A stretch of DNA of 64,000 nucleotides from Candidatus Acidiferrales bacterium (GCA_035307965.1 DATGHO010000038.1:9904-73903); one strand, 5' to 3'. Numbered from the stretch's first letter, positions 186 to 43,160 are shown. Notes: generated by a model not told the origin, from the sequence alone. Numbers and translations are program-made.

Positions 186-1262
186 CTAGGGTGCTTCGAT
201 CAAATGTGTCTGATTCTCTGCCCGATTGTCTGATTGTCCATTCAATAGCACACGATTGTCCGCCGCCGAAGCCGCGCCTGCTTGCGTCCAAGCAAAACGC
301 GTCGCCAGCGAGCCAGCCACTGAGGAAGCCGCCGCGATCTTCCTCAGCTTCATGCTTCGTTCTTTGTCGCCGCCGAGCGCCAGCAGCCGCAGAACCAACG
401 GCACCGGCCCCGCGAGCAATCCGCCCAAGCGCGTCAGCCAGCCGCTTCGTCCAGATTTCAGCGGTTTCAGCGCCGGATTCCTGCGCAGCTCGAGGGAAGC
501 GCCAACCGCCGTCTCCGCCAGCGCCGTAGCGATGCCAACGGCGTCCAACGCTGGCGCCTGATGCCCTCGCAATTCGAGTAAAGCTCCCGCCGCAGCCAGT
601 CCGGAAGTAGCAAAATGCGCAGGCAGTATCTTCGCGTTTTGATTCCACACAGGAATCGCCGTCGCGCCCAGCAGAACCCCCGTGTACGTCAGCAAAACCG
701 CCCCGGTGATGGTGGATATGAACTGGCTGGCGCTCTCCAAAATTTTGATGGGCATGGAACTCGAATTTCGGCGCTGCCATGCGCTGAGGAACGCCGCAGC
801 CATTGCGCTGCTCGAAAACGCCACCAATGTCCAGGAGCCAACCGACATGGGGCTCTGAACCTTGAAAACGCGCAGCATGTTCAAAAAACGCGACGGCATT
901 CCCAGGTCGGCGATCAGCAGAGCAGGCGAGATAGTTCCGGCAATCGCCGCCAAATACCGCCCATCCCGAATGAGCCGCTCATCAGCTCCGGTCAATTGAG
1001 CCACGCTCGCCAGTATGGCTGCAGCTCCCGCCGCTCCGCCGCAGAAAAAGTACAGCGGAACTTCCTTAGTCCATTGCGGCTTTTTGAGAATGGGCAGACC
1101 GTAGTAGCCCGTTTCCGGCGGCGCCTGCGGCATCAAAGCAGTGTCTTTAGAAAACGTTGCCAATCCAGTGCGTTGCGCTTCTCGCCGGATCTGCTGCAGC
1201 CGCGCTTCACGCAAATCACGCGCAACGGGCGACTGTTCGAGCCTATCAGGTGCTTTTCTCAT
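186..1262 (-). CDS. NrfD/PsrC-type integral membrane subunit of the formate dehydrogenase complex
   Basis: The protein has multiple hydrophobic helices. Its ATG (1262-1260) overlaps the TGA of the upstream Fe-S subunit (ATGA), indicating an operon. The 25 codons upstream in the track ORF were rejected as an extension. Confidence 0.75.
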   Translation of the reverse strand: MRKAPDRLEQSPVARDLREARLQQIRREAQRTGLATFSKDTALMPQAPPETGYYGLPILKKPQWTKEVPLYFFCGGAAGAAAILASVAQLTGADERLIRDGRYLAAIAGTISPALLIADLGMPSRFLNMLRVFKVQSPMSVGSWTLVAFSSSAMAAAFLSAWQRRNSSSMPIKILESASQFISTITGAVLLTYTGVLLGATAIPVWNQNAKILPAHFATSGLAAAGALLELRGHQAPALDAVGIATALAETAVGASLELRRNPALKPLKSGRSGWLTRLGGLLAGPVPLVLRLLALGGDKERSMKLRKIAAASSVAGSLATRFAWTQAGAASAADNRVLLNGQSDNRAENQTHLIEAP

Positions 1263-2041
1263 CGCTCGCGCCCTCCCCAAAACGCGAGAAATGCGCCCGC
1301 TATAACCAAAGCTCCTGAGACTGCGGCAGAAGTCCATCCCTTGCGCAGGTAAATTGTGGGAACTTCAGGCTGCGGCGGCAGATTGTAGCTGCGCGGATCG
1401 CCGCGCGTGATGAATATCGCGTGAGTTCCGCCAACGCTCGAATCCACTGGGTCATACAAATGCGCGTCGGTGAAGCCCATGCCCTCCAACTCTGCCATTC
1501 GCTCTTGCGCTTTCGCTCGCAAGTCATCAAATTCGCCAAATTTAATGGATTCCGTGGGGCACGCTGTGGCGCACGCGGGTTGCAGCCCTTCCCGCTGACG
1601 GTCATAGCAGAACGTGCATTTGAACGCGCGACCGTCCTCCTCGTCGCGTTCCACCACGCCAAACGGGCACGCCACCACGCAATACGAGCAGCCGTTGCAT
1701 ACATCTGGCTGGATGAAAACGCCGCCGAATTCTGTGCGAACAATTGCGCCCGTCGGGCATGCCTCCAGGCATCCGGCATTTTCGCAATGCTTACAAACAT
1801 CCGAGGAAAAGCCCCACGAAAACGCCTCGGGAGAATTGCCGCCAAGTCCCGGCGTGACGCCATTCTCGACAAATTTCACATGGCGCCAGGTCGCGTGCCC
1901 TAGCGCGCCGGTATTGTCATAGGAATTTCCGCTCCAAACGAAACCGTCGCCGGGGACCTGATTCCATTCCTTGCACGCCACTTCGCAGGCCTTGCAGCCA
2001 ATGCACAGCGTCGAATCCGTCAGAAAGGCGGTTACGCTCAT
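1259..2041 (-). CDS. Formate dehydrogenase iron-sulfur (beta) subunit, 4x[4Fe-4S] ferredoxin type with C-terminal TM anchor
   Basis: The N-terminus reads MSVTAFLTDSTLCIGCKACEVACKEWN and several CxxCxxCxxxCP clusters follow. The tail is hydrophobic (AAVSGALVIAGAFLAFWGG). An ATGA overlap joins it to the alpha subunit stop. Confidence 0.9.
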   Translation of the reverse strand: MSVTAFLTDSTLCIGCKACEVACKEWNQVPGDGFVWSGNSYDNTGALGHATWRHVKFVENGVTPGLGGNSPEAFSWGFSSDVCKHCENAGCLEACPTGAIVRTEFGGVFIQPDVCNGCSYCVVACPFGVVERDEEDGRAFKCTFCYDRQREGLQPACATACPTESIKFGEFDDLRAKAQERMAELEGMGFTDAHLYDPVDSSVGGTHAIFITRGDPRSYNLPPQPEVPTIYLRKGWTSAAVSGALVIAGAFLAFWGGRER

Positions 2042-5000
2042 GATATTTTGCCTTCGGCCGCCTGGCGCTCACTCTTGGCAGCACGGCCCTTGGCTTCCGC
2101 TCGCAGCGGTCCGCGCTGCTTGCCGCGGAATACGTTGCACAGCAGCGCCTTTGTTTCCATGATGCGCACGTTCGGCTCTTCCGACATAGCGATCAAATCG
2201 TTGACCACGTCGCCCTTCACCAAGCCTTTATAGCCCCAATGGTACGGCAGCCCCACTTGATGAACTACTTTCCCGTCTAGATGGATAGGCCGCACGCGTT
2301 CCGTCACCAGCGCGCGCGCATGAATGAAACTTCTCGCGGTGGCCACTGTCGCCCAATCGCCATTCTCGATTTCCAGTTCGCGAGCAAGCTCCGGCGAGAT
2401 CTCGCAGAAAAGTTCCGGCTGCAGCTCTGACAAATGCGCCAAGTAACGCGACATCCCGCCCGCGGTGTGATGCTCGGTGAGCCGATAGGTGGTCAGGACG
2501 AAAGGAAAGCGAGGGTCAGGAGAATTCGCATAAGGATTTTCCGCATTCTCCATTTTTTTTGCCGCGGGATTGACGCCGTACTTCGCATAAAGCTGATTTT
2601 CGACCGGTGTTTCCAACGGCTCATAATGCGTGGGCAGCGGTCCATCTTTCAGTCCGCTGGGAACCCAAATCCACCCAAATCCGTCAGGATGCATGATGAA
2701 CGGCTTGTCGCCTCCAAGCGCGTCATCGCCCTTCGCGTTTTTCGGAGGCCGGTAATCGGGAGCTTTTGTCTTAGTAAAATCGGGAACATCATATCCGGTC
2801 CACTCGTTTTTTTGCCCATCCCACCAAATGAGCTTCTTGCGTTCGCTCCACGGCCGGCCATCGGGACGCGCGGAGGCGCGATTATAGAGAATGCGCCGGT
2901 CGCTCGGCCATGCGAAGCCCCAGCCGTGCCCATAACGGCCTTTCGGTTCCCGCTTGCGGGCCTTATTTTCATTCGGCTTCGGAAAAACACCCGAGTAAAT
3001 CCAGCAGCCGCACGCCGTGGATCCATCCGCTTTCAAATCCTTATAACCGGAGACGAGTTTACGGTCCGCCGTGGTCCAACCGTTTATTTCCTTCAATATC
3101 TCTTCTGCGTCTGGCTCAGCGATTTCGCCTTCGACAGGGTAGTCCCATGTAAGGGCGTTCAATCCCGCGTTGCGCAGCACGGGATGAGCGCGAGCCTTTT
3201 CCTTCAATCGCCGGCCCAAATGGTAAATGAACCATGTTTCGCTGCGTGCTTCGCCGGGCGGCTGGACGGCCTGCTCGTGAAATTGCACCAGGCGTTGCGT
3301 GTTGGTGAAACAGCCGTTCTTTTCCGCATGTCCGGCAGCCGGAAAGAAAAATACCTCGGTGTCGATGTCTTCAGTATGCAGCTCGCCGCGCGAAATCTCC
3401 GGAGAATCCAGCCAGAACGAAGCCGTTTCCGTCTCCACCATATCCCGCACCACCAGCCATTTCAGTTTAGCCAGCGCTTTTCTTTCCAATCCGGAATTCG
3501 GCGCGCCGACCGCCGGGTTCTGTCCCATCACAAAGAGCCCCTCGACTCTGCCCTGATTCATCTCCATCCAATAGCCCTGGTGAGAATGATCGCCGCTCAC
3601 TCGCGGCAGCCAATCAAAGCCGTAATCATTCTCCTTTGTCGCCGCCTCGCCGTAATAGGCTTTCAATAAGCTGACCGCATATTTGTCGAAATTCGACCAC
3701 CAGCCCGCGCTGGTCTTATGCTTGTCCAAATAGTCGTTGAATGAATTCGCATCCGCTTCGAAAAACGGCATCGGCAGGTAACCGGGCAAAATATCGTAGA
3801 GCGTCGGAATGTCCGTCGAGCCTTGAATCGACGCGTGTCCGCGCAACGCCAAAATCCCGCCGCCGGGCCGCCCGATATTGCCAAGCAGCATCTGCAGAAT
3901 TGCTGCGCTGCGAATGATCTGCACTCCGTCGGAATGTTGCGTCCAGCCGACCGCGTAACATATGGCGGCAGTTTTTTCCGGCCCTGACGCCGAGCAGAAT
4001 GTCTGCGCGAGCTGCTCAAAAACTTCCCGCGAAATTCCGCATGCTTGCTCAACCATCTCCGGCGTGTAGCGCGAGAAATGCCGCTTCAACACTTGATACA
4101 CGCAGCGCGGATTTTGCAGCGAGAGATCCGGCGTGTAGATATTTTCTTGCGATTTTTCGCCGCCGCGATCTTTCGCGTGCCCGCCATGTCCTGGTTCAGC
4201 ATCCGATTCCGTGGGCGAATCTTTGTACGACCACGTTTCGACGTTGTATTCCTTCTTTTCCGCGTCCCAGCCCGAAAATACGCCATCCAGATCCTCGGTA
4301 TCTTTGAGATCGTCCCGAAGAATCACCGAGGCGTTCGTGTAATGCAGGACGTATTCGCGAAAGTCGAGATTGTTTTCGAGAACGTAGCGAATCAGCGCGC
4401 CCAGCAGCACAATATCGCTTCCGGCGCGCAGCGGAACCCACATGTCCGCCATCGCTGAAGTGCGCGTAAACCGCGGGTCAACGTGAATGATCTTCGCGCC
4501 CTTGTTTCGCGCTTCGATCACCCATTGGAATCCCACCGGGTGATTCTCGGCCATCGACGAGCCCATAATTAGAATCGCGTCGGAATTCGCGAGGTCTTGC
4601 TGCGCCGTGGTTGCGCCGCCGCGTCCGAAGGAGGTGCCCAGACCGGGCACCGTCGAGCTATGTCATATGCGCGCCTGATTACTGACGCACACCATGCCCA
4701 GGCCAGCGGTGAACAGCTTCTTGATTAAGTAATTTTCTTCGTTGTCGAGAGTTGCGCCGCCAAGATGAGCGATGGCTGTGGTGCTCATCAGCGTGTGACC
4801 ATCCTTCTTCTCGACGAACGTTCGCTCGCGAGACTGCCAGACACGCTCCGCCACCATATCCATCGCTTTTTCCAACGAGATCTCTTCCCATTTTGTCCCG
4901 CGAGGCTGGCGGTACAGCACTTTGGTCGCGCGCTGCGGATGCGTGAGGAGCTCGTAGCTCGCCGCGCCTTTCGGGCACAGATGCCCGCGCGATATGGGAG

Positions 5001-5220
5001 ATTCGGGGTCGCCTTCGATGGAGACGAGCTTTCCGTCGCGGTGAAAAATCAGTTGTCCGCAGCCGACGCCGCAGTACGGGCAAATCGAGCGCGATTTTTG
5101 CGCGCCATGCTTCTTCGTCCGCAGCGATTGCGTTCGCGGACTCATCGCTTCGGGGCCTGTGCCGTCGCCGCCGCTGACCAACTGGCGCAAAAGAGGCCAT
5201 CTTAAAAGTGCGTTTTTCAT
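2038..5220 (-). CDS. fdhA: Formate dehydrogenase alpha subunit (Mo/W-bis-PGD), selenocysteine-containing; 1060 codons with UGA-Sec at 4665-4663
   Basis: Track ORFs 4663..5220 and 2038..4650 share one frame: ...VSNQARI-TGA-HSSTVPGLGTSFGRGG... An N-terminal CxxCxxxC (CPYCGVGCG) Fe-S motif is present. A SECIS-like hairpin lies 11 nt after the UGA. Confidence 0.9.
4633..4651 (-). promoter_or_regulatory. SECIS-like stem-loop for the fdhA UGA
   Basis: The mRNA reads GGUGCCC GGUCU GGGCACC, a perfect 7-bp stem with a 5-nt GGUCU loop. It begins 11 nt 3' of the UGA. Confidence 0.75.
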
Positions 5221-6169: not shown

Positions 6170-6319
6170 CTTAGCGGTCTTCCCGTTAGCCGGCCATCAT
6201 CATCTTGCAGGTTCCTTTCTGCGCACACCGCCGAATCGCCAAGCTAACTCGTGCCGACTGCGCCGCATCGAATAGGGGAATCGGCAGGGGATTGCAACGG
6301 CAGTCGCACGGGAGGTTTC

Positions 6320-6916
6320 ATGCGGAACACAAAATGCTGCGCCGTCTGGGTTTGCCAGCTTGCCGTGATGGTTTGCCTTTTTGCTTTTCTTGTGCCGGCG
6401 CGCGCCCAAGCGCAGGCTAAAATCGAGCTTTTCGGCGGCTTTTCCTACGTGCGTGGCGACGTCCGTTCAGTCGAACTGGTGCCTGGGCCACCGCCTGCGT
6501 TCGTCACCCAGCATCCCAATTTGCCCGGCTGGGAATTCTCCGGCGCATACAAATTCTTCCCATTCTTGAGCGGCAATCTCGATTTCGGCGAGCAGTACGG
6601 CAAATTGAATGGCGGCAACGTCCGCCTGAAGACGTATTTATTCGGCCCGCAACTCGCTTTGCCCGGCCCTGTTTCGCCGTTTGTCCACGCGGAATTCGGT
6701 TTCGCCCACCAGTCCGTAGGAACTTTCACAAACACGGCGTTTGTAAGCCCCGGCACCGACACCTCTTTTGCAACTGCCCTCGGCGGAGGTCTGGATATCG
6801 CCGCCGTTCCTTTTTTCGCCATACGCCTGATTCAAATCGATTATTTGAGGACCAGCCTCTATCATCAAACGCAAAGTGAGCCGCGCGTCTCCGCCGGCAT
6901 CGTCTTCCGCTTTTAG
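6320..6916 (+). CDS. Outer-membrane beta-barrel protein (OmpA-like/porin-family small barrel)
   Basis: GGAGG lies 5 nt before the ATG at 6320. The signal peptide is MRNTKCCAVWVCQLAVMVCLFAFLVPARAQA. The sequence shows an alternating beta-strand pattern and a terminal ...GIVFRF aromatic residue. Confidence 0.8.
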   Translation: MRNTKCCAVWVCQLAVMVCLFAFLVPARAQAQAKIELFGGFSYVRGDVRSVELVPGPPPAFVTQHPNLPGWEFSGAYKFFPFLSGNLDFGEQYGKLNGGNVRLKTYLFGPQLALPGPVSPFVHAEFGFAHQSVGTFTNTAFVSPGTDTSFATALGGGLDIAAVPFFAIRLIQIDYLRTSLYHQTQSEPRVSAGIVFRF

Positions 6917-6932
6917 CCGAATGTAACGGCGT

Positions 6933-7274
6933 CTAGGCGTGTACCGCTCCGCGCTCGATCGGCAAGCCCGCGGCGATCCAGTCCGACTTGCCTTCGGCGT
7001 AATCTCTAACGTTTTTGTAGCCCATTTCCGCCAAGTCCTTGGCGGCTTTTTCCGAAGCGTGTCATGTGGGACTGGCGCAATACACCACAATTTCCGCGTC
7101 CTTCTCCGGAGCCAAGTCCGGCGCCATCTCCCGCAGCTTATCGAGCGGCACATTGACCGCTCCCGGCAAATGTCCTTGCTCGTACGCGGCGGGCGCAAGC
7201 GTCTCCAACAGCAGAAAATCGTCTTTGCGCTCCATTTTCCGCTTCAGTTCGTCCCGGCTGATTGTTCCCGTCAT
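6933..7274 (-). CDS. Single-domain rhodanese-like sulfurtransferase with in-frame UGA (candidate selenoprotein, 113 codons, UGA = codon 71)
   Basis: The track ORF 7062..7274 ends ...[10 protein letters not shown] at a TGA. The same frame continues [42 protein letters not shown] to the TAG at 6935-6933. This is the normal C-terminal third of a rhodanese domain. The UGA sits where relatives carry Cys (YCxxxxCxxS). Confidence 0.65.
7028..7045 (-). promoter_or_regulatory. SECIS-like hairpin downstream of the rhodanese UGA
   Basis: The mRNA reads CCGCCAA GGAC UUGGCGG, a perfect 7-bp stem with a G-rich tetraloop. It starts 16 nt after the UGA. Confidence 0.5.
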
Positions 7275-7341
7275 AAAAATTTACCTCTGCTCCTCGGATG
7301 CGCCGCATTCCGCAAAAGTCGCAGTTCCGCGAAGAGGGAAT

Positions 7342-8424
7342 TCAGCGTTGTGGCTGCAAAATCAATTTCTGCACGCGCCAGTTCAGCAACTCTGCCACAA
7401 AAAGCACATTTTCCGAGGGACAGGCGATCTCATGTATCCAGCCAAACTGCTTGAGCTGCTTGCCTGATTCACCCAGCATCCCCAGCACTTTTCCATCGAG
7501 CGTCAGCTTGTAAATTCTTCCCGGATACGCATCCGAGCTATAAAGCACCTGATGGGGAGGCGGCGTAATACAAATCGCCCACGGCGCTCCGGACGCCATT
7601 GTGCCTTTCAACGCCGCAGGATTCGCCGGCATATTGCCAATCGCCGGACGCGCATTCGGCGGCGCGGGCACGTCAATCGTAATCTGGCGCAGAAATTTCC
7701 CGTCGCCGTCGAACACCTGAATTCTCCGATTGCCGCGGTCCGCCACGTAAACCTCGCCGCGCGCATCCACCGCAATACTGTGCGGCGTGTTGAACTTGCC
7801 CGGCCCGGTCCCCGGCTCGCCCCAGAACATCAGCCAGTTGCCATTCTTGTCCACTTTCGCCACGCGCGAATTGATGTAGCCGTCGCTGATGTAAATGTTG
7901 CCCTGCGCGTCCCACGCCACGTCCGTCACTTGCCGGAACATTCCGTCCACCGGCGGCAACGGCGGGTGCAGATGCTTCAGCGGCCCGGTATGTTCGTCCG
8001 CCGCTTCCTGCTTCCGCCCGAAAACCATCACCACGCGTCCTTGCGGATCGAACTTGATGACCATGTCCGATCCTTTGTCGGTAGCCCAAATGTTGTCCTC
8101 GGGATCCACTTTCACCGTATGCGCGAACGACCACGCGTACAAATTATGGCCAATCTCGCGCATGTAATTTCCATGCGCATCGAATTCCAGAAGTTGCGCT
8201 GCCGCCGCGCCGTACGCTGGCCCCGTCGTGTTGCCCCGCGAAAACACGAACACGTCGCCTTTCGAATTCACCGCCACGCCGGAAACTTCGCCGAGGTACA
8301 AATTCGGCGGCAATTTAAGAAAGTTCGGCGCAGAGCGATAGGGAATTTCTGGCGGCAGAGCGTCTTGCGCATAAACAGCCGTCGCGAGAAATGCCAGCAG
8401 CACGAGACAAGCGTAGCGCTTCAT
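7342..8424 (-). CDS. Secreted NHL-repeat / six-bladed beta-propeller protein (peptidyl-alpha-hydroxyglycine lyase-like fold)
   Basis: The signal peptide is MKRYACLVLLAFLATAVYAQ. Repeated blades of the form ...G.V.VAD..N.RI..F... are visible. Confidence 0.75.
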   Translation of the reverse strand: MKRYACLVLLAFLATAVYAQDALPPEIPYRSAPNFLKLPPNLYLGEVSGVAVNSKGDVFVFSRGNTTGPAYGAAAAQLLEFDAHGNYMREIGHNLYAWSFAHTVKVDPEDNIWATDKGSDMVIKFDPQGRVVMVFGRKQEAADEHTGPLKHLHPPLPPVDGMFRQVTDVAWDAQGNIYISDGYINSRVAKVDKNGNWLMFWGEPGTGPGKFNTPHSIAVDARGEVYVADRGNRRIQVFDGDGKFLRQITIDVPAPPNARPAIGNMPANPAALKGTMASGAPWAICITPPPHQVLYSSDAYPGRIYKLTLDGKVLGMLGESGKQLKQFGWIHEIACPSENVLFVAELLNWRVQKLILQPQR

Positions 8425-26706: not shown

Positions 26707-27111
26707 CTATCGCTTCAGTTTGGAAATAAGGAAATCGCGGAGGACGATGGCGCTATTGTGCTCGTTATCACGGGCGCTGTAGAGCAAAGTTACATCGCCG
26801 CGGCGGATGGCTTCGAGGAGCGCGACTAATCCCCCAGGCTCGACTGACCGTCGACCCGAGGGCCCCTTCTGTGCCGCGAAATTTGCGCGAAGTTCGGCGA
26901 GGTAACGGCGACGGAATTCGGGCCAGCGTTCGAGTTTGTGACCGTACCAGACACGCAACCGCTGGCTGGGCGCGACATCTTTGAGCCAGGCGTCGAGGTG
27001 GAGAGATTCTTTTTTGATGCCGCGCGGCCAAAGGCGTTCAACGAGGTAGCGCGAAGAGGAATTCGGGGATTTTTGATGCGGGCGGTCGTAGACGCGGGCG
27101 ACTTCAATCAT
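26707..27111 (-). CDS. DUF488 family protein (short, YeaO-like)
   Basis: The product reads MIEVARVYD...YLVERLWPRG...WLKDVAPSQRLRVWYGH...WPEFRRRYLAEL...TLLYSARD. The start was set at the ATG at 27111. The upstream track extension runs through a REP element. Confidence 0.75.
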   Translation of the reverse strand: MIEVARVYDRPHQKSPNSSSRYLVERLWPRGIKKESLHLDAWLKDVAPSQRLRVWYGHKLERWPEFRRRYLAELRANFAAQKGPSGRRSVEPGGLVALLEAIRRGDVTLLYSARDNEHNSAIVLRDFLISKLKR

Positions 27112-27314
27112 CGAAATGACTCTCAACAAAAGTATAGACGCCGCAGCGCACGCGTCGCAACAATGCTCGAGGTTGAGGAGTTCGCGTGATAATTGTGATA
27201 CGAAGCTTCCGCAGCATTCGGGCCACAAAATGAAGTCCCGTACCGGGGACGTCCGTGGAATCAGCGGCTCCCAAGAGCGGTAGTTCCAGGGGCTAAAGCC
27301 CTTCGACAAGCGAA

Positions 27315-27440
27315 AAGCAGGTTCCTCGTCAGATGCTGGTCGCATCTTCGCTCGGAATGACAAGAAAGACTTAAAGCCGCAGATCTTCGCAACAGCGCCC
27401 CCGACAAAGGGCGCCGGGGCAAGGGAACTTCTGCGCTACA
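27315..27440 (+). repeat. Composite REP-like element (module R1 27315..27364 plus module R2 27373..27440)
   Basis: R1 has conserved flanks around an AGATGC/GCATCT hairpin. R2 reads aaagccGCAGAtcTTCGC...GCGCCCccgacaaaGGGCGC...gaacTTCTGCgctaca, a nested palindrome. Related copies lie at 29194, 60061 and 32844. Confidence 0.8.
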
Positions 27441-27446
27441 GTTAAA

Positions 27447-29006
27447 TCAATTTGAGGTCTGCTGCTCGGCGTATGGCTTGGCGGCGGGTGAAGTTGCCGG
27501 AGCGTGAAGGCCGCGGGCGAAACCTTGCCTGATCAAACTGAATATTGTGCGACGATTTTCAAAGATTGTTTTCACCCACGCGAAGCGGCCCATCTGCGGG
27601 AAATAAATTCCGCGGAAGCATAGACGAGAGATCAAAATATTGATGCGGCAGCCCAAAGGCTTGTCATTGATGGACTGCACGGCCTTTTCGATGGCCTGCG
27701 GACTGTAGCAGTTGAGCCAGCCCTTTCGAACTTCTTCGTGCGCTTCATCGATGCTCATCTTCAGCGGCGTGTGCGCCATGGCAAAAGGTATGAACTCCTG
27801 CCAATGCTTGACGCGCGTAAGGCGTCCGGCGGCTTCCAGACGTTTGTAGAGCGGCGTGGAAGGCAGCGGCGTGAGCAGGCCAAAAATCGGGAGGCCAGGC
27901 GGCCAGGTGCGGATCTGGTTCAAAGTGCGTTCGGCGACGCCGACTGTGTCATTGTCCATGCCGAAAATAAAAGACGTGATGGCATAGACGTTGCGCTGGG
28001 CGAGGCGTTCGAGAACGGCGGCGTATTCCGACGGCTTGTTGAAGCCTTTTTTCACATCGGCGAGATTGGCGGGGTCGATCGATTCCATGCCGATGAAAAT
28101 CCATTTGCCTCCGGAAGCGGCAATCAAATCCACAAGCTCTTCGTCGCGCAACAGATTGGCGCTGATTTGCGCGACCCAATGAACCTGGGCGTTTGCGGCG
28201 ATGATGTCGCGCAGCAGGGATTTGGTGCGTTTGATGTTGATGGCGAAATTATCGTCGATAAAAAAGACGGCGATCTGGCCGCCTTCTTTGCGGGCGCGCG
28301 CTTTGAGCAGGAGGAGTTCGTTGACCACGCTTTCATTGGAGCGAAAGCGGATGGAGTCGCCGAAAAATCCGGTGACGGTGCAGAATTCGCATCCGTAAGG
28401 GCAGCCGCGCCCGGACTCCATGGGAATAATGCGAAAACTTCCCCAGCCATCGCCGATGCGCTTCAGGAACGGATGCAATACCTTCGGCAATAAATTGAAT
28501 TGCTTAAGTTTGATAGTGTCCCAGGGAATTTTCGGATAGGGCTGAAGCGAAGGTTTGCGTTCCTGGCCAAAGGCGTCAACTGGCGCGTAAACCTCTTTGA
28601 GCGCGCCACGGGCGGCGTCTTCGACAATTTTGGGCCAAGTCTCATCGGCTTCGCCGAGCGCGACAGCGTCGGCGTGCTGCGGGCCGCCATCTTTTCCGAG
28701 AGCCTCGTCGGCCATTTCGGTGACGTGAGGACCGCCCATGACGACTTTCGCTCCGGCGGCGCGGACAGCGTCAGCCATACGATAAGCCTTGGCGATCATT
28801 CTGGTCATGGCGCCGATGCCAACGAGGCCGATGTTGTGCTCGCGGACGTAGCGCGCGATGCTTTGCTCGTTCATGGGCTGCGCGTTGCCGTCGATCAGCA
28901 CCACTTCGTGGCCGGGAGGAGTTAATGCTTGTAAGAGGAACATCCAAAGGTGGGGCATAAAATTGCGAGTGACGCCGTTGTCCGGGTTGTACAGTAAGAT
29001 TTTCAT
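27447..29006 (-). CDS. B12-binding-domain radical SAM protein (class B rSAM)
   Basis: The N-terminal Rossmann-like cobalamin domain begins MKILLYNP... and includes GIGAMT. The CxxxCxxC motif is CPYGCEFC. The start was set at the ATG at 29006. Confidence 0.85.
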   Translation of the reverse strand: MKILLYNPDNGVTRNFMPHLWMFLLQALTPPGHEVVLIDGNAQPMNEQSIARYVREHNIGLVGIGAMTRMIAKAYRMADAVRAAGAKVVMGGPHVTEMADEALGKDGGPQHADAVALGEADETWPKIVEDAARGALKEVYAPVDAFGQERKPSLQPYPKIPWDTIKLKQFNLLPKVLHPFLKRIGDGWGSFRIIPMESGRGCPYGCEFCTVTGFFGDSIRFRSNESVVNELLLLKARARKEGGQIAVFFIDDNFAINIKRTKSLLRDIIAANAQVHWVAQISANLLRDEELVDLIAASGGKWIFIGMESIDPANLADVKKGFNKPSEYAAVLERLAQRNVYAITSFIFGMDNDTVGVAERTLNQIRTWPPGLPIFGLLTPLPSTPLYKRLEAAGRLTRVKHWQEFIPFAMAHTPLKMSIDEAHEEVRKGWLNCYSPQAIEKAVQSINDKPLGCRINILISRLCFRGIYFPQMGRFAWVKTIFENRRTIFSLIRQGFARGLHAPATSPAAKPYAEQQTSN

Positions 29007-29170
29007 CGCGGTCCTTAGGGTGGAGCAAAGTGAAACGCAGACGGCGGCAATTATGCCACGGTTAATGATAATCAGAAAATAAAATCGAATTTGCCGTATG
29101 CTGGCGGGCAATTGATTCGATGCGCTGCTGCGGTAAAGGTTTGCCCTGTGCGGGACGAGCGGGCTAGCAG

Positions 29171-29261
29171 AAATCCGAATGACGGGGCACATCAAAAGCC
29201 CCAGATCTTCGCGAAGGGCGCCGCGACAACGAGGGACGGGGACGCGAAGTCTTGCGCTATA
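29171..29261 (+). repeat. REP-like element (R1 3'-flank fragment plus R2 copy)
   Basis: The fragment aaatccgaatgac is followed by aaagccccagatcttcgc...gcgaagtcttgcgctata. The TAG stop of the DUF488 gene (29259-29257) lies inside the element. Confidence 0.7.
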
Positions 29262-29865
29262 CGGACTTTGCCGACGCGGTTTGGTGCGCGGCGCGCTTCC
29301 TGGCGTAGGCGCGAGTGGCGCGATTGGGCGGGTAGGTGACGCGTTTGCCGCGAACGCGGGCGAAAGGCGTGAGCTTGTGAAGATTGCGGCGCGCGGGGGT
29401 CATGATGTGCTCAACGGCATGGCCGCGAACGGTGAGCGCGTCGGCGATGAGCGAGCGATGGCAGCGCCACGGAACGGCCTCGGCGCACATGGTAGCGCAG
29501 AGCTTGGTTTTTGCTAATTTCTCCAGGCGGGCGAGGGCGGCGGCGAATTCGGGAGTTTGCATGTAATCGGCGAAGCCGCGAAAGCTGGAATTCTGCCAGC
29601 CAGTGTTGACGGAATCGGCGCGGGCGCGGCGGAGGCCGCCGAGTTTCGGCAGATGCGTGTAGGCGATGTGCGCGCGTCGCACGGAGGCCGCGAGGGCTTC
29701 GCGGTTGAATTGCGGATTGTGGCGCGAGCGCGGGATGGTGCGAACGTCAACGAGGCACTTGACGCCGTGGGATTTGAGCAGCGCTAGAAATTCGGCGATG
29801 GAATGATTGGAATGGCCGACGGTGAAGATGGGCGGCTTGGCGCGAGGGGCGCGTTTGCGAGTCAC
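29257..29865 (-). CDS. DUF488 family protein (long form)
   Basis: The motifs IFTVGHSN...FLALLK...LVDVR and CAEAVPWRCHRSLIAD are present. The GTG start overlaps the AlkA-like stop (GTGA). Confidence 0.8.
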   Translation of the reverse strand: MTRKRAPRAKPPIFTVGHSNHSIAEFLALLKSHGVKCLVDVRTIPRSRHNPQFNREALAASVRRAHIAYTHLPKLGGLRRARADSVNTGWQNSSFRGFADYMQTPEFAAALARLEKLAKTKLCATMCAEAVPWRCHRSLIADALTVRGHAVEHIMTPARRNLHKLTPFARVRGKRVTYPPNRATRAYARKRAAHQTASAKSV

Positions 29866-30878
29866 AGCAATCCCCGGCTGCGCAGCCCATCGAGCAGGAA
29901 ATGAAAATAGATGAGGCCGGCATAGTTTTTCCAGGGCGCGAGAAGTTTGCGCGTTTTGGCATAGTCGGGGCGAACGCGAAGGCGAAGGTGTTTCTGTAAA
30001 TTGTTCCAGCCGCCGACGTCGTCTCCCGGAAAAATATTGAGGCGGCCCATGCCGCGGAGAAGCGCGTATTCGGCGGACCAGCGGCCGATGCCGCGAATTG
30101 CGGTGAAACTTTCGAGGGCGGTTGCGTCGTCGAGTTCGCGGAATGATTCAAGATTCAACTCGCCGGAAGCGACTGTGCGGCTCAAGTCGAGAATGGCGCG
30201 CTCTTTGTTGCGGCTGTAGCCGAGCGCACGCAGGGAGCCAGTAGAAAGATTGGCGAGGTCCGCAGGGGAAGGGCAGGCCCGCGCTGGCGCGCCCGCATTC
30301 GCTGAGGGAGTTGCAGGGGCAGAGCGGCCGAAGCTCTGTACAAGACGGTTGAGGAGCATAATGCCGACGTTCAGGGAAACCTGCTGGCACGAGATGGCGT
30401 TGAGAAGAGCTTCAAAGATGGTGGGATAGCGGGGAGGTTTGAGTCCGGTGAAGTCAGCGATGAGCTCGCGCAGGGGTTTTTGACTGGCCGCGAACGAATA
30501 AAAGCCGCGAAGGTCGCTGGCGGCGCCGAGCATGCGTTCGAGGGTGGCGCGCAGATAATGATGTAGTTCACGTGTTGCATGAGGGACACGCGCGGTGACG
30601 CTCAGACACGGGCGCGCGACAGAACCGGTTTGCTCGACGGCGACTTCGGCGGTCAGGGCGCCGGTTTTTCCATCGAGCAGAAGTACGCGGCGATAAACAT
30701 GGCCGTCCCAGCGATCGAGGATGTTTTCGGGGCGGCGCCGTAAAGCCCAGACAGTGAGGTCCAGGCGAAAGGGCGGGAGCGGATGAATGGTAAATGAAAG
30801 CGATGGACGCGCAGCTGCGGACGCAACGCGACGAGGAGAAGAGCGTTTTGCTGAGAGATTTCGTGAGCCCTGTGGCAT
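29862..30878 (-). CDS. DNA-3-methyladenine glycosylase II family protein (AlkA-like, HhH-GPD)
   Basis: The HhH-GPD region is ...LRALGYSRNKERAILDL...IRGIGRWSAEYALLRGMGRLNIFPGDDVG. The start was set at the ATG at 30878. The 168-codon upstream extension in the track was rejected. Confidence 0.8.
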   Translation of the reverse strand: MPQGSRNLSAKRSSPRRVASAAARPSLSFTIHPLPPFRLDLTVWALRRRPENILDRWDGHVYRRVLLLDGKTGALTAEVAVEQTGSVARPCLSVTARVPHATRELHHYLRATLERMLGAASDLRGFYSFAASQKPLRELIADFTGLKPPRYPTIFEALLNAISCQQVSLNVGIMLLNRLVQSFGRSAPATPSANAGAPARACPSPADLANLSTGSLRALGYSRNKERAILDLSRTVASGELNLESFRELDDATALESFTAIRGIGRWSAEYALLRGMGRLNIFPGDDVGGWNNLQKHLRLRVRPDYAKTRKLLAPWKNYAGLIYFHFLLDGLRSRGLL

Positions 30879-30972
30879 GTTGTTATCATCTATCGTAAAT
30901 GCGGAAAGATGCAAACGTAGCCGGTGAGCGGCGGTGGCGGCGCCGCAAGTTTTCACAACGAAGGGAGTCACG

Positions 30973-31695
30973 GTGGGCACAATTCCAATGAAGCTGAAGC
31001 AGCGCAGGGAGATTGCCGAAGGAACGATGGGATTCTGGCTGGAGAAGCCTGCGGGATTTGAGTTTAAGGCCGGACAGGCGATGGAAGTGAAGCTGAATGA
31101 TCCACCGGAAACGGATGGGGAGGGGAATTCGCGGGCGTTCTCGATCGCTAGCGCGCCGCACGAGCCGGACATTATGTTCGCGACGCGCATGCGGGATACG
31201 GCGATGAAGCGCAGTTTGAAGAAAATCCCGCTGGGCACGGAATTGGAAGTCGATGGCCCATGGGGCGATCTGAAATTGCACAGCAGGGAGCAACGCCCGG
31301 CGGTGTTTCTTGCGGGAGGGATTGGCATTACGCCGTTCCGCAGCATGGCGCTGGACGCGGCGCAAAACAAATTGGCGCACAAAATCTGGCTCTTCTATTC
31401 CAATCGCCGTCCCGAGGATGCCGCTTTTCTCGACGATTTGATGCGCGCGGAAAAAGAGAATCCCAACTTCAAATTAGTTGCCACCATGACCGAGATGGAT
31501 AAATCGAAGCGGGAGTGGAAAGGGAAGCGCGGATTCGTCGACAAAGCGATGCTCTCGGAAGCAGTGGGTGACTTGAGCGCGCCGATTTTTTACATCGCCG
31601 GGCCGGCGGGCATGCTGAACGCCATGCGCAAGATGCTGCTCGATGCAGGTGTGAACGAGGATGATATTCGCGCCGAGGAGTTCGCCGGATATTAG
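30973..31695 (+). CDS. Ferredoxin-NADP reductase-type FAD/NAD(P)-binding oxidoreductase
   Basis: The FAD motif is RAFSIAS and the NAD(P) motif is FLAGGIGITPF. The start is uncertain (GTG 30973 after AAGGGAG, ATG 30988 or GTG 30934). Confidence 0.8.
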   Translation: MGTIPMKLKQRREIAEGTMGFWLEKPAGFEFKAGQAMEVKLNDPPETDGEGNSRAFSIASAPHEPDIMFATRMRDTAMKRSLKKIPLGTELEVDGPWGDLKLHSREQRPAVFLAGGIGITPFRSMALDAAQNKLAHKIWLFYSNRRPEDAAFLDDLMRAEKENPNFKLVATMTEMDKSKREWKGKRGFVDKAMLSEAVGDLSAPIFYIAGPAGMLNAMRKMLLDAGVNEDDIRAEEFAGY

Positions 31696-41450: not shown

Positions 41451-41549
41451 CCTAATTCCTGCGCTGCAACATTTGCCATTTCGCATCTGTTGATTATTCG
41501 CGCGCGCGGGTTGCTGCGACCGAATGCCGCGTGTATCATCACATCCTCC

Positions 41550-43160
41550 ATGGAGTACGACTGTCTCCGCTTCTCTGACATTCCGCACACTTCGAAGCTA
41601 TTCGCTTCATTCGTTGAAGATTTTTCAAAGGTAGAAAAGTTTTACGCGCATCCGCCCGGCGAGGCGGGAGTCCGTGAAGCGGCCGGCAAAATAACTCTGG
41701 ACGCTTCCGTGCGTAGCGCCGTTGCGGAGATTCTGCGCGAACAGAACAGTCGCTTAGGCTCGGGCGCGGAAACCGAGCGGAATATCGAGCGGCTCCGCAA
41801 TGGTGCGGCGGCGATTGTCAGCGGCCAGCAAGTGAGTTTATTCGGCGGGCCGGCGTACAGCTTTTACAAAGCGCTCGACGCGATCGAGTGGGCAAAAAAG
41901 CTTACGCAGGTGGGCACGGACGCGGTGCCGATTTTTTGGATGGCGACCGAGGATCACGACCTCGCGGAAGCGAACCAGGCTTTTTTCAACGAGCGATATG
42001 GAATGGCGCAGCTTGCGGTGCCGCTTGACGAAGCCGTTGCGGGAAGGAGCGTGGGGCGAATTTCGCTGGGAAGCGCGGTTCAGGCGGTCGTTGAACATGC
42101 GGCCGCCCTTCTGCAAGGGCCCGCAGCGAAGGAGATTCGCGACGCGCTCTCCGAATCGTATCGCGCCGAGGAAACATTTGGTTCGGCATTCGGGAAATTC
42201 ATGGCGCGAGTGCTGCAGGGGCGAGGATTGATTTTGCTGGATCCATTGGACAAGCGTTTGCACGAATTGGCGCGCCCTGTCTATCAAAAGGCGATTGAAG
42301 ATTCGAAGGCTATTACCGATGAACTGCTGGCGCGCGGAAAAGAGCTGGGGCGGCATGGTTTTCATGCGCAAGTGAAGGTCACCCAGCAATCCACGCTTCT
42401 TTTTTTGGACGTCGACGGCAAGCGCGACGCAGTGCGCAGGAAAAACGGCGGCTTCATCGCGGGAAATTTGCGGCTCACCGCAGCAGACTTGCTGAAAAAA
42501 GTTGAAAACGAGCCGGAAGCGCTCAGCGCCAGCGTTTTGCTGCGCCCTGTGTTGCAGGATTCGATTTTGCCGACGGCGGCATACATTGGCGGGCCCGCGG
42601 AAGTGGCCTACATGGCGCAGGCGCAAACCGTCTACCAGCGAATTCTCGGACGCATGCCTGCCATTTTGCCGCGCGCGAGCTTTACGCTGATCGAGCCGTC
42701 GGTGGCGCGCGGGTTGAAAAAATATCACCTGGATATTAGCGGCGTTTTCGGCGGCCGGCAACAATTGCGGCGAAAAATGGAGATGCAATACCTTCCGCGC
42801 GGATTGGCGGCGCGTTTTGCGCGTGATGAAAAAACGTTGCGAACAATGTTGAGCAGTTACGGGAAGCCGCTGCAAATTCTCGATAAAAGCCTCGTGGGCG
42901 CGCGCGATACGGCAGAGAAAAAGATGCTGTATCAATTCGAGAAGCTCCGCGGCAAAGCGGGGCGTTCGGAAAATCAGCGCACGGGAGTGCTGGACCGGCA
43001 CGAGTCGGAAATTCGCAGCTCACTTTATCCGCGTCACGGCTTGCAGGAGCGCACGCTCAGCCTGCTGCCGTTTTTGGCGCGTTATGGAATGGATTTGCTG
43101 GATCGGCTGCAATCGGCAACCGATGCGCCGTGCAAAGAGCACCGCCTGATAACGCTATAA
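41550..43160 (+). CDS. bshC: Bacillithiol biosynthesis cysteine-adding enzyme BshC
   Basis: The protein is about 536 aa. The N-terminus MEYDCLRFSDIPHTSKLFASFVEDF...FY is BshC-like, and the motifs IVSGQQV.LFGGP and WMATEDHD are present. Confidence 0.75.
   Translation: MEYDCLRFSDIPHTSKLFASFVEDFSKVEKFYAHPPGEAGVREAAGKITLDASVRSAVAEILREQNSRLGSGAETERNIERLRNGAAAIVSGQQVSLFGGPAYSFYKALDAIEWAKKLTQVGTDAVPIFWMATEDHDLAEANQAFFNERYGMAQLAVPLDEAVAGRSVGRISLGSAVQAVVEHAAALLQGPAAKEIRDALSESYRAEETFGSAFGKFMARVLQGRGLILLDPLDKRLHELARPVYQKAIEDSKAITDELLARGKELGRHGFHAQVKVTQQSTLLFLDVDGKRDAVRRKNGGFIAGNLRLTAADLLKKVENEPEALSASVLLRPVLQDSILPTAAYIGGPAEVAYMAQAQTVYQRILGRMPAILPRASFTLIEPSVARGLKKYHLDISGVFGGRQQLRRKMEMQYLPRGLAARFARDEKTLRTMLSSYGKPLQILDKSLVGARDTAEKKMLYQFEKLRGKAGRSENQRTGVLDRHESEIRSSLYPRHGLQERTLSLLPFLARYGMDLLDRLQSATDAPCKEHRLITL

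Follow-up and report, generated by a model that had tools for sequence, protein, structure and literature searches.

The 64,000-nucleotide stretch of DNA from Candidatus Acidiferrales bacterium (GCA_035307965.1, DATGHO010000038.1:9904-73903), referred to here in its whole length as the window, carries on its minus strand a short rhodanese-like gene interrupted by an in-frame TGA triplet. The open reading frame (ORF) starts with an ATG at 7274-7272 and runs for 70 codons to ...VVYCASPT, where it meets the TGA at 7064-7062; past this triplet, the same frame stays open for 42 sense codons, up to a TAG at 6935-6933. An initial annotation, made from the sequence alone, had described this succession of 70 codons, TGA, and 42 codons in frame, and translation reproduces it. 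We consider, with a probability of about 0.85, that this is a genuine gene and that it encodes a single-domain rhodanese selenoprotein of 113 residues, probably located in the cytoplasm, in which UGA71 is recoded as selenocysteine (Sec). The coordinates of the gene and of its elements are collected in Table 1. By its sequence, the purine-rich stretch GAGGAGCAGAGG ahead of the start codon would act in ribosome binding.

Table 1. Features of the rhodanese selenoprotein gene and its context in the window.
Feature	Position	Strand	Remarks
Complete selenoprotein coding sequence	6933..7274	-	113 codons, Met1 to Ala113, with predicted Sec71, plus the TAG stop at 6935-6933; encodes a single-domain rhodanese
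Shine-Dalgarno-like purine-rich stretch GAGGAGCAGAGG	7284..7295	-	9 nucleotides 5' of the ATG at 7274-7272; read from the sequence
Cys66 codon TGC, canonical rhodanese catalytic Cys	7077..7079	-	residue 1 of the loop after the β-strand
In-frame UGA, predicted Sec71	7062..7064	-	stands for the second Cys of the family C-x4-C motif
Hairpin resembling a bacterial selenocysteine insertion sequence (SECIS)	7028..7045	-	5' arm 7045-7039, loop GGAC 7038-7035, 3' arm 7034-7028
Block of low synonymous variation	7026..7049	-	codons 76-83, includes the hairpin; RNA-level constraint, from codon entropy
42 codons 3' of the UGA	6936..7061	-	predicted helix, strand, and helix that finish the rhodanese fold
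Context: fdhA Sec codon and SECIS hairpin	4633..4665	-	Sec codon 4665-4663; hairpin GGUGCCC-GGUCU-GGGCACC (about 4633-4651)

The 113-residue product matches the rhodanese model PF00581 with 63.5 bits (gathering threshold 22.2) over profile positions 2-101 of 102, whereas the 70-residue product scores 43 bits and its alignment ends at profile position 70. The whole domain is covered solely by the read-through product, in keeping with the earlier assignment of the downstream codons to a rhodanese; the product also gives a clear match to the PspE/GlpE models. Structure was considered on the AlphaFold2 model of a natural Cys orthologue, P0002, which is 68% identical to the window protein. The model adopts a complete rhodanese fold, with a predicted local distance difference test (pLDDT) score of 90, and superimposes on PDB entry 6mxv with a template modeling (TM) score of 0.83; BH2092 (PDB entries 3NHV and 3O3W) is also close. 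It comprises a strand at residues 62-65, a loop at 66-72, a helix at 73-83, a strand at 89-92, and a helix at 95-101. The full-length PF00581 domain and the complete predicted fold both imply that read-through of the UGA is needed. The product can be classed as a rhodanese domain by its match to the whole of PF00581 and by the modeled fold, in which the catalytic Cys is the first residue after the central strand. On the same model, U71 is placed at the loop end, directly before the following helix.

The active-site loop is two residues longer than that of the PspE/GlpE type, carries the two-Cys pattern Y-C-x4-C-x-x-S, and lacks the basic residues of the thiosulfate sulfurtransferases. The window protein has C-A-S-P-T-U as its motif and reads U-H-A-S from the Sec onward, with His at position +6. 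Cys66 is invariant in our alignment of the family; aligned with PspE and other solved rhodaneses, it coincides with their active-site Cys.

A protein search of a large collection returned 824 relatives, and column statistics were computed on the 120 best clusters. At the UGA column, 88 of these clusters have Cys, as expected if the UGA replaces the second Cys of the YCxxxxCxxS pattern, which the initial annotation had supposed; 4 have Trp, and 21 end right after C-x4. The latter are proteins of 69-70 residues terminating at ...YC-x4, and several of them are NCBI entries named "rhodanese-like domain-containing protein" from metagenome-assembled genomes (MAGs) of Ca. Acidoferrales/Acidiferrales and Verrucomicrobiae. 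The Trp residues come from Joint Genome Institute (JGI) gene calls (P0001, P0003, P0004, and P0008), full-length but wrong proteins; for the one checked in DNA (locus L049), the codon is TGA and the Trp is thus a gene-calling artifact. The 70-residue fragment P0009 is 100% identical to the window product. No full-length version of the window gene was present among the matches from any source, the NCBI-sourced close relatives all being 69-70-residue truncations. Current annotation rules therefore miss the gene, and the truncation by standard gene callers that had been anticipated is indeed what public annotation displays. The error is systematic: among the 120 closest protein clusters, no fewer than 21 are cut in the middle of the active site, and Trp is wrongly given in a few more.

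According to an exhaustive profile search, single-domain rhodaneses with a C-x4-C motif are a very large group of great diversity, and most of the single-domain representatives read, themselves diverse, have the second Cys. No Sec-annotated relative was found in this exhaustive search of representatives, whose matches were mostly multidomain rhodanese proteins. The closest Cys orthologues, P0002 (locus L004) and the protein of L005, are 65-70% identical to the window protein. One close relative, P0005 (positions 141-479 of L050), known from a single metagenome contig of 871 bp, carries the Arg codon AGA in place of the Sec codon, with the SECIS hairpin intact; a sequencing error, inactivation of this copy, or a real variant could each account for it.

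A genome scan with one genome per species yielded 44 loci, 32 of them close. In 30 of these 32, TGA occupies the identical codon and is followed in frame by a highly conserved tail of 41-42 codons. The TGA loci belong to Ca. Acidiferrales, Pyrinomonadaceae, Blastocatellia, Terracidiphilus, and one Chthoniobacterales-labelled bin, that is, mostly to Acidobacteriota. L004 and L005 have TGC at codon 71 (about 3211-3213) and retain the hairpin; since both are nested among Sec forms, their sequences suggest a recent conversion of TGA to TGC, from Sec to Cys. Codon 71 is accordingly paired between TGA and Cys across these homologues. A further pairing is found on one contig: L048 (3.09 Mb) contains a Cys paralogue (3001-3351), similar to protein P0044 of a Rubrobacteraceae MAG, and, arranged in tandem with it, a Sec paralogue (3448-3804, CMSPI-TGA-SAS). 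The gene caller split the L048 Sec copy into ORFs of 73 and 32 residues.

The 69-70-residue products given by gene callers and NCBI for many relatives, together with the score that the 70-residue fragment still reaches against PF00581, would be accounted for if the gene were a pseudogene or encoded a true 70-residue protein, the TGA being a real stop and the downstream frame decaying. Selection on the tail speaks against it. Among 26 full-length Sec genes, the ratio of nonsynonymous to synonymous substitution (dN/dS) is 0.073 in the tail (codons 72-112), with a synonymous divergence (dS) of about 1.4, and 0.109 in the head (codons 1-70), with a dS of about 1.7; the tail is conserved like the head at saturated synonymous divergence. 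It is therefore translated and under purifying selection, which excludes both a pseudogene and a true stop. Nor do the homologues terminate at the UGA position, an outcome that would have spoken against the initial annotation: the 41-42 downstream codons are kept in 30 other loci with a dN/dS of 0.07. Moreover, 30 loci share TGA at one and the same codon, and a 70-residue product would stop within the active-site loop, without two helices and one strand. We regard such a truncated gene as extremely improbable, and the comparative data effectively refute the pseudogene.

The window contains a second gene with an in-frame UGA, fdhA, which lies about 1.7 kb away and in which the Sec codon reported earlier was found together with its own hairpin. 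It belongs to an operon (5220..189, minus strand) encoding a formate-dehydrogenase-type molybdopterin oxidoreductase, a 4Fe-4S subunit, and an NrfD-like membrane subunit. The UGA stands in the context ...NQARI-U-HSSTVPGLGTSFGRGGAT and is flanked on both sides by Molybdop_Fe4S4, Molybdopterin, and Molydop_binding domains. Like the rhodanese gene of L048, fdhA is split by ORF callers at the in-frame UGA, here into pieces of 185 and 870 residues. The UGA and SECIS of fdhA, as read from the sequence, indicate that the organism decodes UGA as Sec.

Read-through could also occur without selenium, if the TGA were reassigned to Trp or Gly, read by near-cognate suppression, or translated as Cys, with the hairpin merely stimulatory. 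The JGI calls, which put W at this position, go in that direction. However, TGA is the commonest ordinary stop in the window (18 of 42 long ORFs) and the G+C content is 58%, which implies the standard code with no reassignment; an alternative genetic code was rejected on the frequency of TGA as a stop. In addition, the aligned residue of the homologues is Cys, neither Trp nor Gly, a classical Sec-encoding fdhA is present in the same window, and the position of the hairpin and its G-containing loop fit the descriptions of bacterial SECIS elements. Selenium-free read-through is, in our opinion, highly unlikely, and recoding of UGA71 as Sec is retained.

The hairpin noticed in the initial annotation, CCGCCAA-GGAC-UUGGCGG, is present as described: it starts 16 nucleotides, and its loop 23 nucleotides, 3' of the UGA. 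Loop position and G-containing loop are within the range of bacterial SECIS elements, such as the Escherichia coli fdhF element and those described by bacterial SECIS (bSECIS) search models. A G+C-rich stem of 5-7 bp can form in all 31 Sec sequences between nucleotides +18 and +39 past the UGA. In their alignment, 94.5% of the cells are paired; sliding the partner by 1-3 columns lowers this to 24-74%. RNAalifold recovers the same stem core. At pair 21-36, 22 sequences have C-G, 5 have U-G, and 4 have U-A, with no mismatch, and the outer pair 18-39 occurs as C-G, U-A, and G-C. In the lineage of the window (window, L001, and L002), two outer pairs have been lost and two inner A-U pairs gained; the stem thus remains 7 bp long in a shifted register. 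The loop begins with G or CG and its sequence differs by lineage, being GGAC, GGAU, or GGAG, or else CGUGAAUU.

Constraint on this segment is exerted at the RNA level. The normalized synonymous codon entropy of codons 76-83 is 0.245, versus 0.788 in the rest of the gene, and these codons form the lowest eight-codon window of the gene (permutation p<1e-5). Several codons of the hairpin are nearly frozen (GCC 26/26, CGT 23/24, and GCG 22/25), whereas other Ala, Arg, and Leu codons vary freely. Thus, one hairpin Ala codon is always GCC in the 26 genes, and Ala codons elsewhere use all four synonyms. The hairpin is absent from the distant Cys homologues with retrievable DNA (L045-L048), despite similar peptides (AARELTA, AVRELAE, AAKLLAD, and EARELED). 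In L048, it is confined to the Sec copy, where its register is unchanged and the outer pair is A-U instead of the C-G of the others. The element is consequently kept through both compensatory and register-shifting changes, at the minimum of synonymous variation.

These data bear on the question of whether the hairpin is a SECIS at all, rather than an mRNA-stability element or a by-product of the conserved A-A-R/K-E/D-L-A peptide that it encodes. The peptide is conserved, Ala codons (GCN) are naturally self-complementary, and the close Cys forms L004 and L005 retain the hairpin. Against these points stand the near-frozen synonymous sites, the codons for the same amino acids varying elsewhere, the similar peptides of L045-L048 that come without a hairpin, and the tandem pair of L048, of which only the Sec member can form the hairpin and the Cys member cannot. 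An origin other than as a SECIS thus has little to recommend it and is given a very low probability, and the coding by-product was rejected on the synonymous freeze and on the hairpin-free Cys homologues. Taken together, a Sec/Cys pair, a conserved tail, and a conserved 3' stem-loop with a small G-containing loop are the marks of a bacterial selenoprotein, and the sequences compared here bear all three, which supports the interpretation given in the initial annotation.

Several observations weigh against our reading of the gene. In a single sequence, the evidence of the hairpin is weak: a perfect 7-bp hairpin occurs at that position in 0.6% of shuffles, a comparable one follows 1.2% of all TGA triplets of the window, which makes the hairpin alone only mildly unusual, and the 71-nucleotide fold has an unremarkable z-score of -0.34. 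The hairpin is convincing solely across the loci, where the comparative evidence goes far beyond chance, and there covariation comes from two variable pairs in related sequences. Rfam at gathering thresholds gave no match in the window, a negative that is uninformative because the fdhA SECIS was missed as well. The window shows none of selA, selB, selC, and selD: a Pfam scan covering 46 long ORFs matched no sel gene family, and ARAGORN detected no transfer RNA (tRNA), tRNA-Sec included, in the 64 kb; we infer the Sec machinery indirectly, through the Sec-type fdhA. Neighbor clustering revealed no broadly conserved operon, the gene being otherwise stand-alone, and this mostly nonconserved context offers little functional guidance. 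Finally, selenium incorporation, SelB dependence, and the catalytic role of U71 are steps that we infer, and the catalytic roles of C66 and U71 given below are conjectural.

We propose that the stem-loop within the coding sequence, 16 nucleotides past the UGA, would work as a bacterial SECIS. SelB·GTP·Sec-tRNA(Sec) would bind the hairpin while the ribosome is paused at the UGA, Sec71 would be inserted, and translation would then run for 42 further codons to the TAG. In the protein, C66 and U71 could form a chalcogen pair in which one residue takes up sulfane sulfur, or else another chalcogen or a metalloid; the partner residue would attack it, and the reaction would be resolved via an intramolecular selenenylsulfide. 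Owing to the low pKa of selenium and its quality as a leaving group, an Se-S bond might be formed and reduced faster than a Cys-Cys bond, and this faster bond cycle could give a quicker turnover of a persulfide-relay or redox cycle. Two findings suggest a C66/U71 pairing, namely the strict conservation of both positions across the family and the fact that, among the NCBIfam models, the product best matches the rhodanese part of TsoB, a U-x4-U protein with a DsbD-like module. The window also includes a homologue of bshC (41490-43157, plus strand), a gene of bacillithiol biosynthesis. Its presence suggests bacillithiol as the low-molecular-weight thiol of the organism and a candidate acceptor of the rhodanese.

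The protein may instead be a selenoprotein but not a sulfurtransferase, its C-x4-U being the site of a reductase of metalloid oxyanions (arsenate or selenite) or of a redox partner of an ArsM-like enzyme, with a thiol/selenol-to-selenenylsulfide cycle as in rhodanese folds of the Cdc25/Acr2 type. In four loci of Pyrinomonadaceae (L016, L019, L021, and L022), an ArsM-family methyltransferase starts about 9 nucleotides past the rhodanese stop, and an ArsM-family gene is nearby in L015 and L029. This neighbor scores 348 bits against NF040538 (arsinothricin-type ArsM) and 193 bits against NF008823 (arsenite methyltransferase), both below the cut-off. In L016, positions 3349-4509 encode the ArsM-family S-adenosylmethionine (SAM) methyltransferase, after which come a fatty-acid hydroxylase and a GT2 glycosyltransferase. 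A metalloid function would also agree with the length of the loop, which exceeds that of the thiosulfate sulfurtransferases and is devoid of their basic residues, and with TsoB, in which U-x4-U is coupled to a DsbD-like redox module (PMC13188914). On the other hand, the ArsM neighbor is restricted to 6 of 32 loci and to one subclade, and does not occur in the window, whose rhodanese gene is flanked instead by a gene for an NHL-repeat protein and by an unassigned ORF; no ars regulator or transporter was seen. Nor does the loop show the HC(X)5R motif of Cdc25/Acr2: the residue before the Cys is Tyr, and throughout the Sec clade the Arg of the motif at +6 gives way to His or Asn, in the window protein to His. 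We hold such a metalloid function to be unlikely, yet clearly less so than a truncated gene or selenium-free read-through.

In a wider form of this idea, C-x4-U would be a redox-active selenenylsulfide center and the protein a stand-alone selenol-dependent reductase or relay, not a persulfide carrier. We put this forward tentatively, as a minority view; possible substrates include arsenate, selenite, or the catalytic disulfide of the adjacent ArsM-like methyltransferase of Pyrinomonadaceae. If true, the rhodanese fold would have a catalytic function not described so far, which would be widespread among soil Acidobacteriota and hidden from current annotation.

On either side of the rhodanese gene, the window encodes a 221-residue ORF without Pfam or NCBIfam match (6251-6913, plus strand) and a 360-residue NHL-repeat β-propeller protein (7345-8424, minus strand). 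Both immediate neighbors are common only to the closest Acidiferrales loci, L001 and L002. Farther away, at 26710-31382 (minus strand), two DUF488 proteins flank a B12-binding radical SAM enzyme, adjoining a 506-residue HhH-GPD (base-excision-type) protein.

Sec-containing rhodanese-like proteins have been predicted since 2005 (PMC1088965, PMC1976440, PMC2398784), and a 2026 review lists five forms: UxxS (form 1, PF00581, WP_010941598.1), UxxG (form 2, PF00581), CxU (form 3, NF041203), UxxG (form 4, PF00581), and UxxxxU (form 5, TsoB, NF045694, with a DsbD-like fusion; Haft and Tolstoy 2025 as cited therein) (PMC13188914). Forms 2 and 4, the COG0607 and cd01449 sulfurtransferases of Zhang and Gladyshev, were predicted from Sec/Cys pairs and bSECIS elements and, according to the reviews, have no biochemical characterization (PMC1088965, PMC2398784, PMC13188914). 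The gene is less novel than the initial annotation implied: rhodaneses with Sec already make up an established class of predicted proteins, of which five forms are catalogued, among them TsoB with its U-x4-U spacing (PMC13188914). The gene represents an unannotated soil-bacterial branch of this predicted class and brings no new principle. It adds a selenoprotein to the soil Acidobacteriota (Acidiferrales, Pyrinomonadaceae, and Blastocatellia), a phylum in which an early comparative survey of 2006 counted only three selenoprotein families. Its natural Cys orthologues and tandem Cys/Sec paralogues also make the role of the second Cys testable in a large uncharacterized subgroup of rhodaneses.

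None of the NCBIfam selenoprotein models is passed by the 113-residue product. The best match is TsoB (57 bits, E 8e-16, profile positions 46-160), with which it shares a rhodanese domain with Sec at i/i+5 spacing, by the listed motif, in what has to be the active-site loop. TsoB, however, extends over 572 profile positions and comprises a DsbD-like fusion and two Sec, whereas the window protein has 113 residues with a Cys followed by one Sec; the 57 bits, which concern the rhodanese part only, compare with a cut-off of 805 for NF045694. The LYCAU type (form 3) is likewise a single-domain rhodanese in which the catalytic Cys is kept and Sec comes later in the loop, but its Sec is at +2 and that of the window protein at +5, and the SECIS sequence also differs. 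The score against NF041203 is 44.5 bits for a cut-off of 115, and the motif is not C-x-U. A CxU/LYCAU-like Sec rhodanese (TYCT-TGA-PNEG...) with its own hairpin is encoded in L046 at about 4420-4768 (minus strand), where it is called as a 69-residue fragment. As this contig also harbors a Cys member of the family of the window gene, the two families are distinct.

In forms 2 and 4, judging by the U-x-x-G motif, Sec replaces the catalytic Cys, whereas in the window protein it replaces the family-specific second Cys; the catalytic position is an invariant Cys and the Sec context is not U-x-x-G but U-H-A-S. The latter reads U-x-x-S, as in form 1, and PF00581 is matched in both cases, a likeness established by motif and domain alone. 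Among solved structures, BH2092 from Bacillus halodurans, a structural-genomics entry for which no functional assignment was found, resembles the window protein in fold, size, and extended two-Cys loop (YCWGPACNGAT versus YCASPTUHAS), but has Cys in place of Sec and no SECIS. As for the RNA element, the fdhF-type SECIS of the window fdhA is similarly a stem-loop within the coding sequence soon after the UGA, with a G-containing loop (GGUCU, compared with GGAC in the rhodanese gene). Its loop starts 18 nucleotides past the UGA, versus 23 in the rhodanese gene, whose loop varies and shows no evident bulged U. In this field, another Sec site in the same domain defines another subfamily (PMC9312934). 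By this criterion, the different Sec site in the same domain makes the gene a further form and not a new kind; on the sequences compared, it is most likely a further form of the known Sec rhodanese class, form 1 having been compared by motif and domain.

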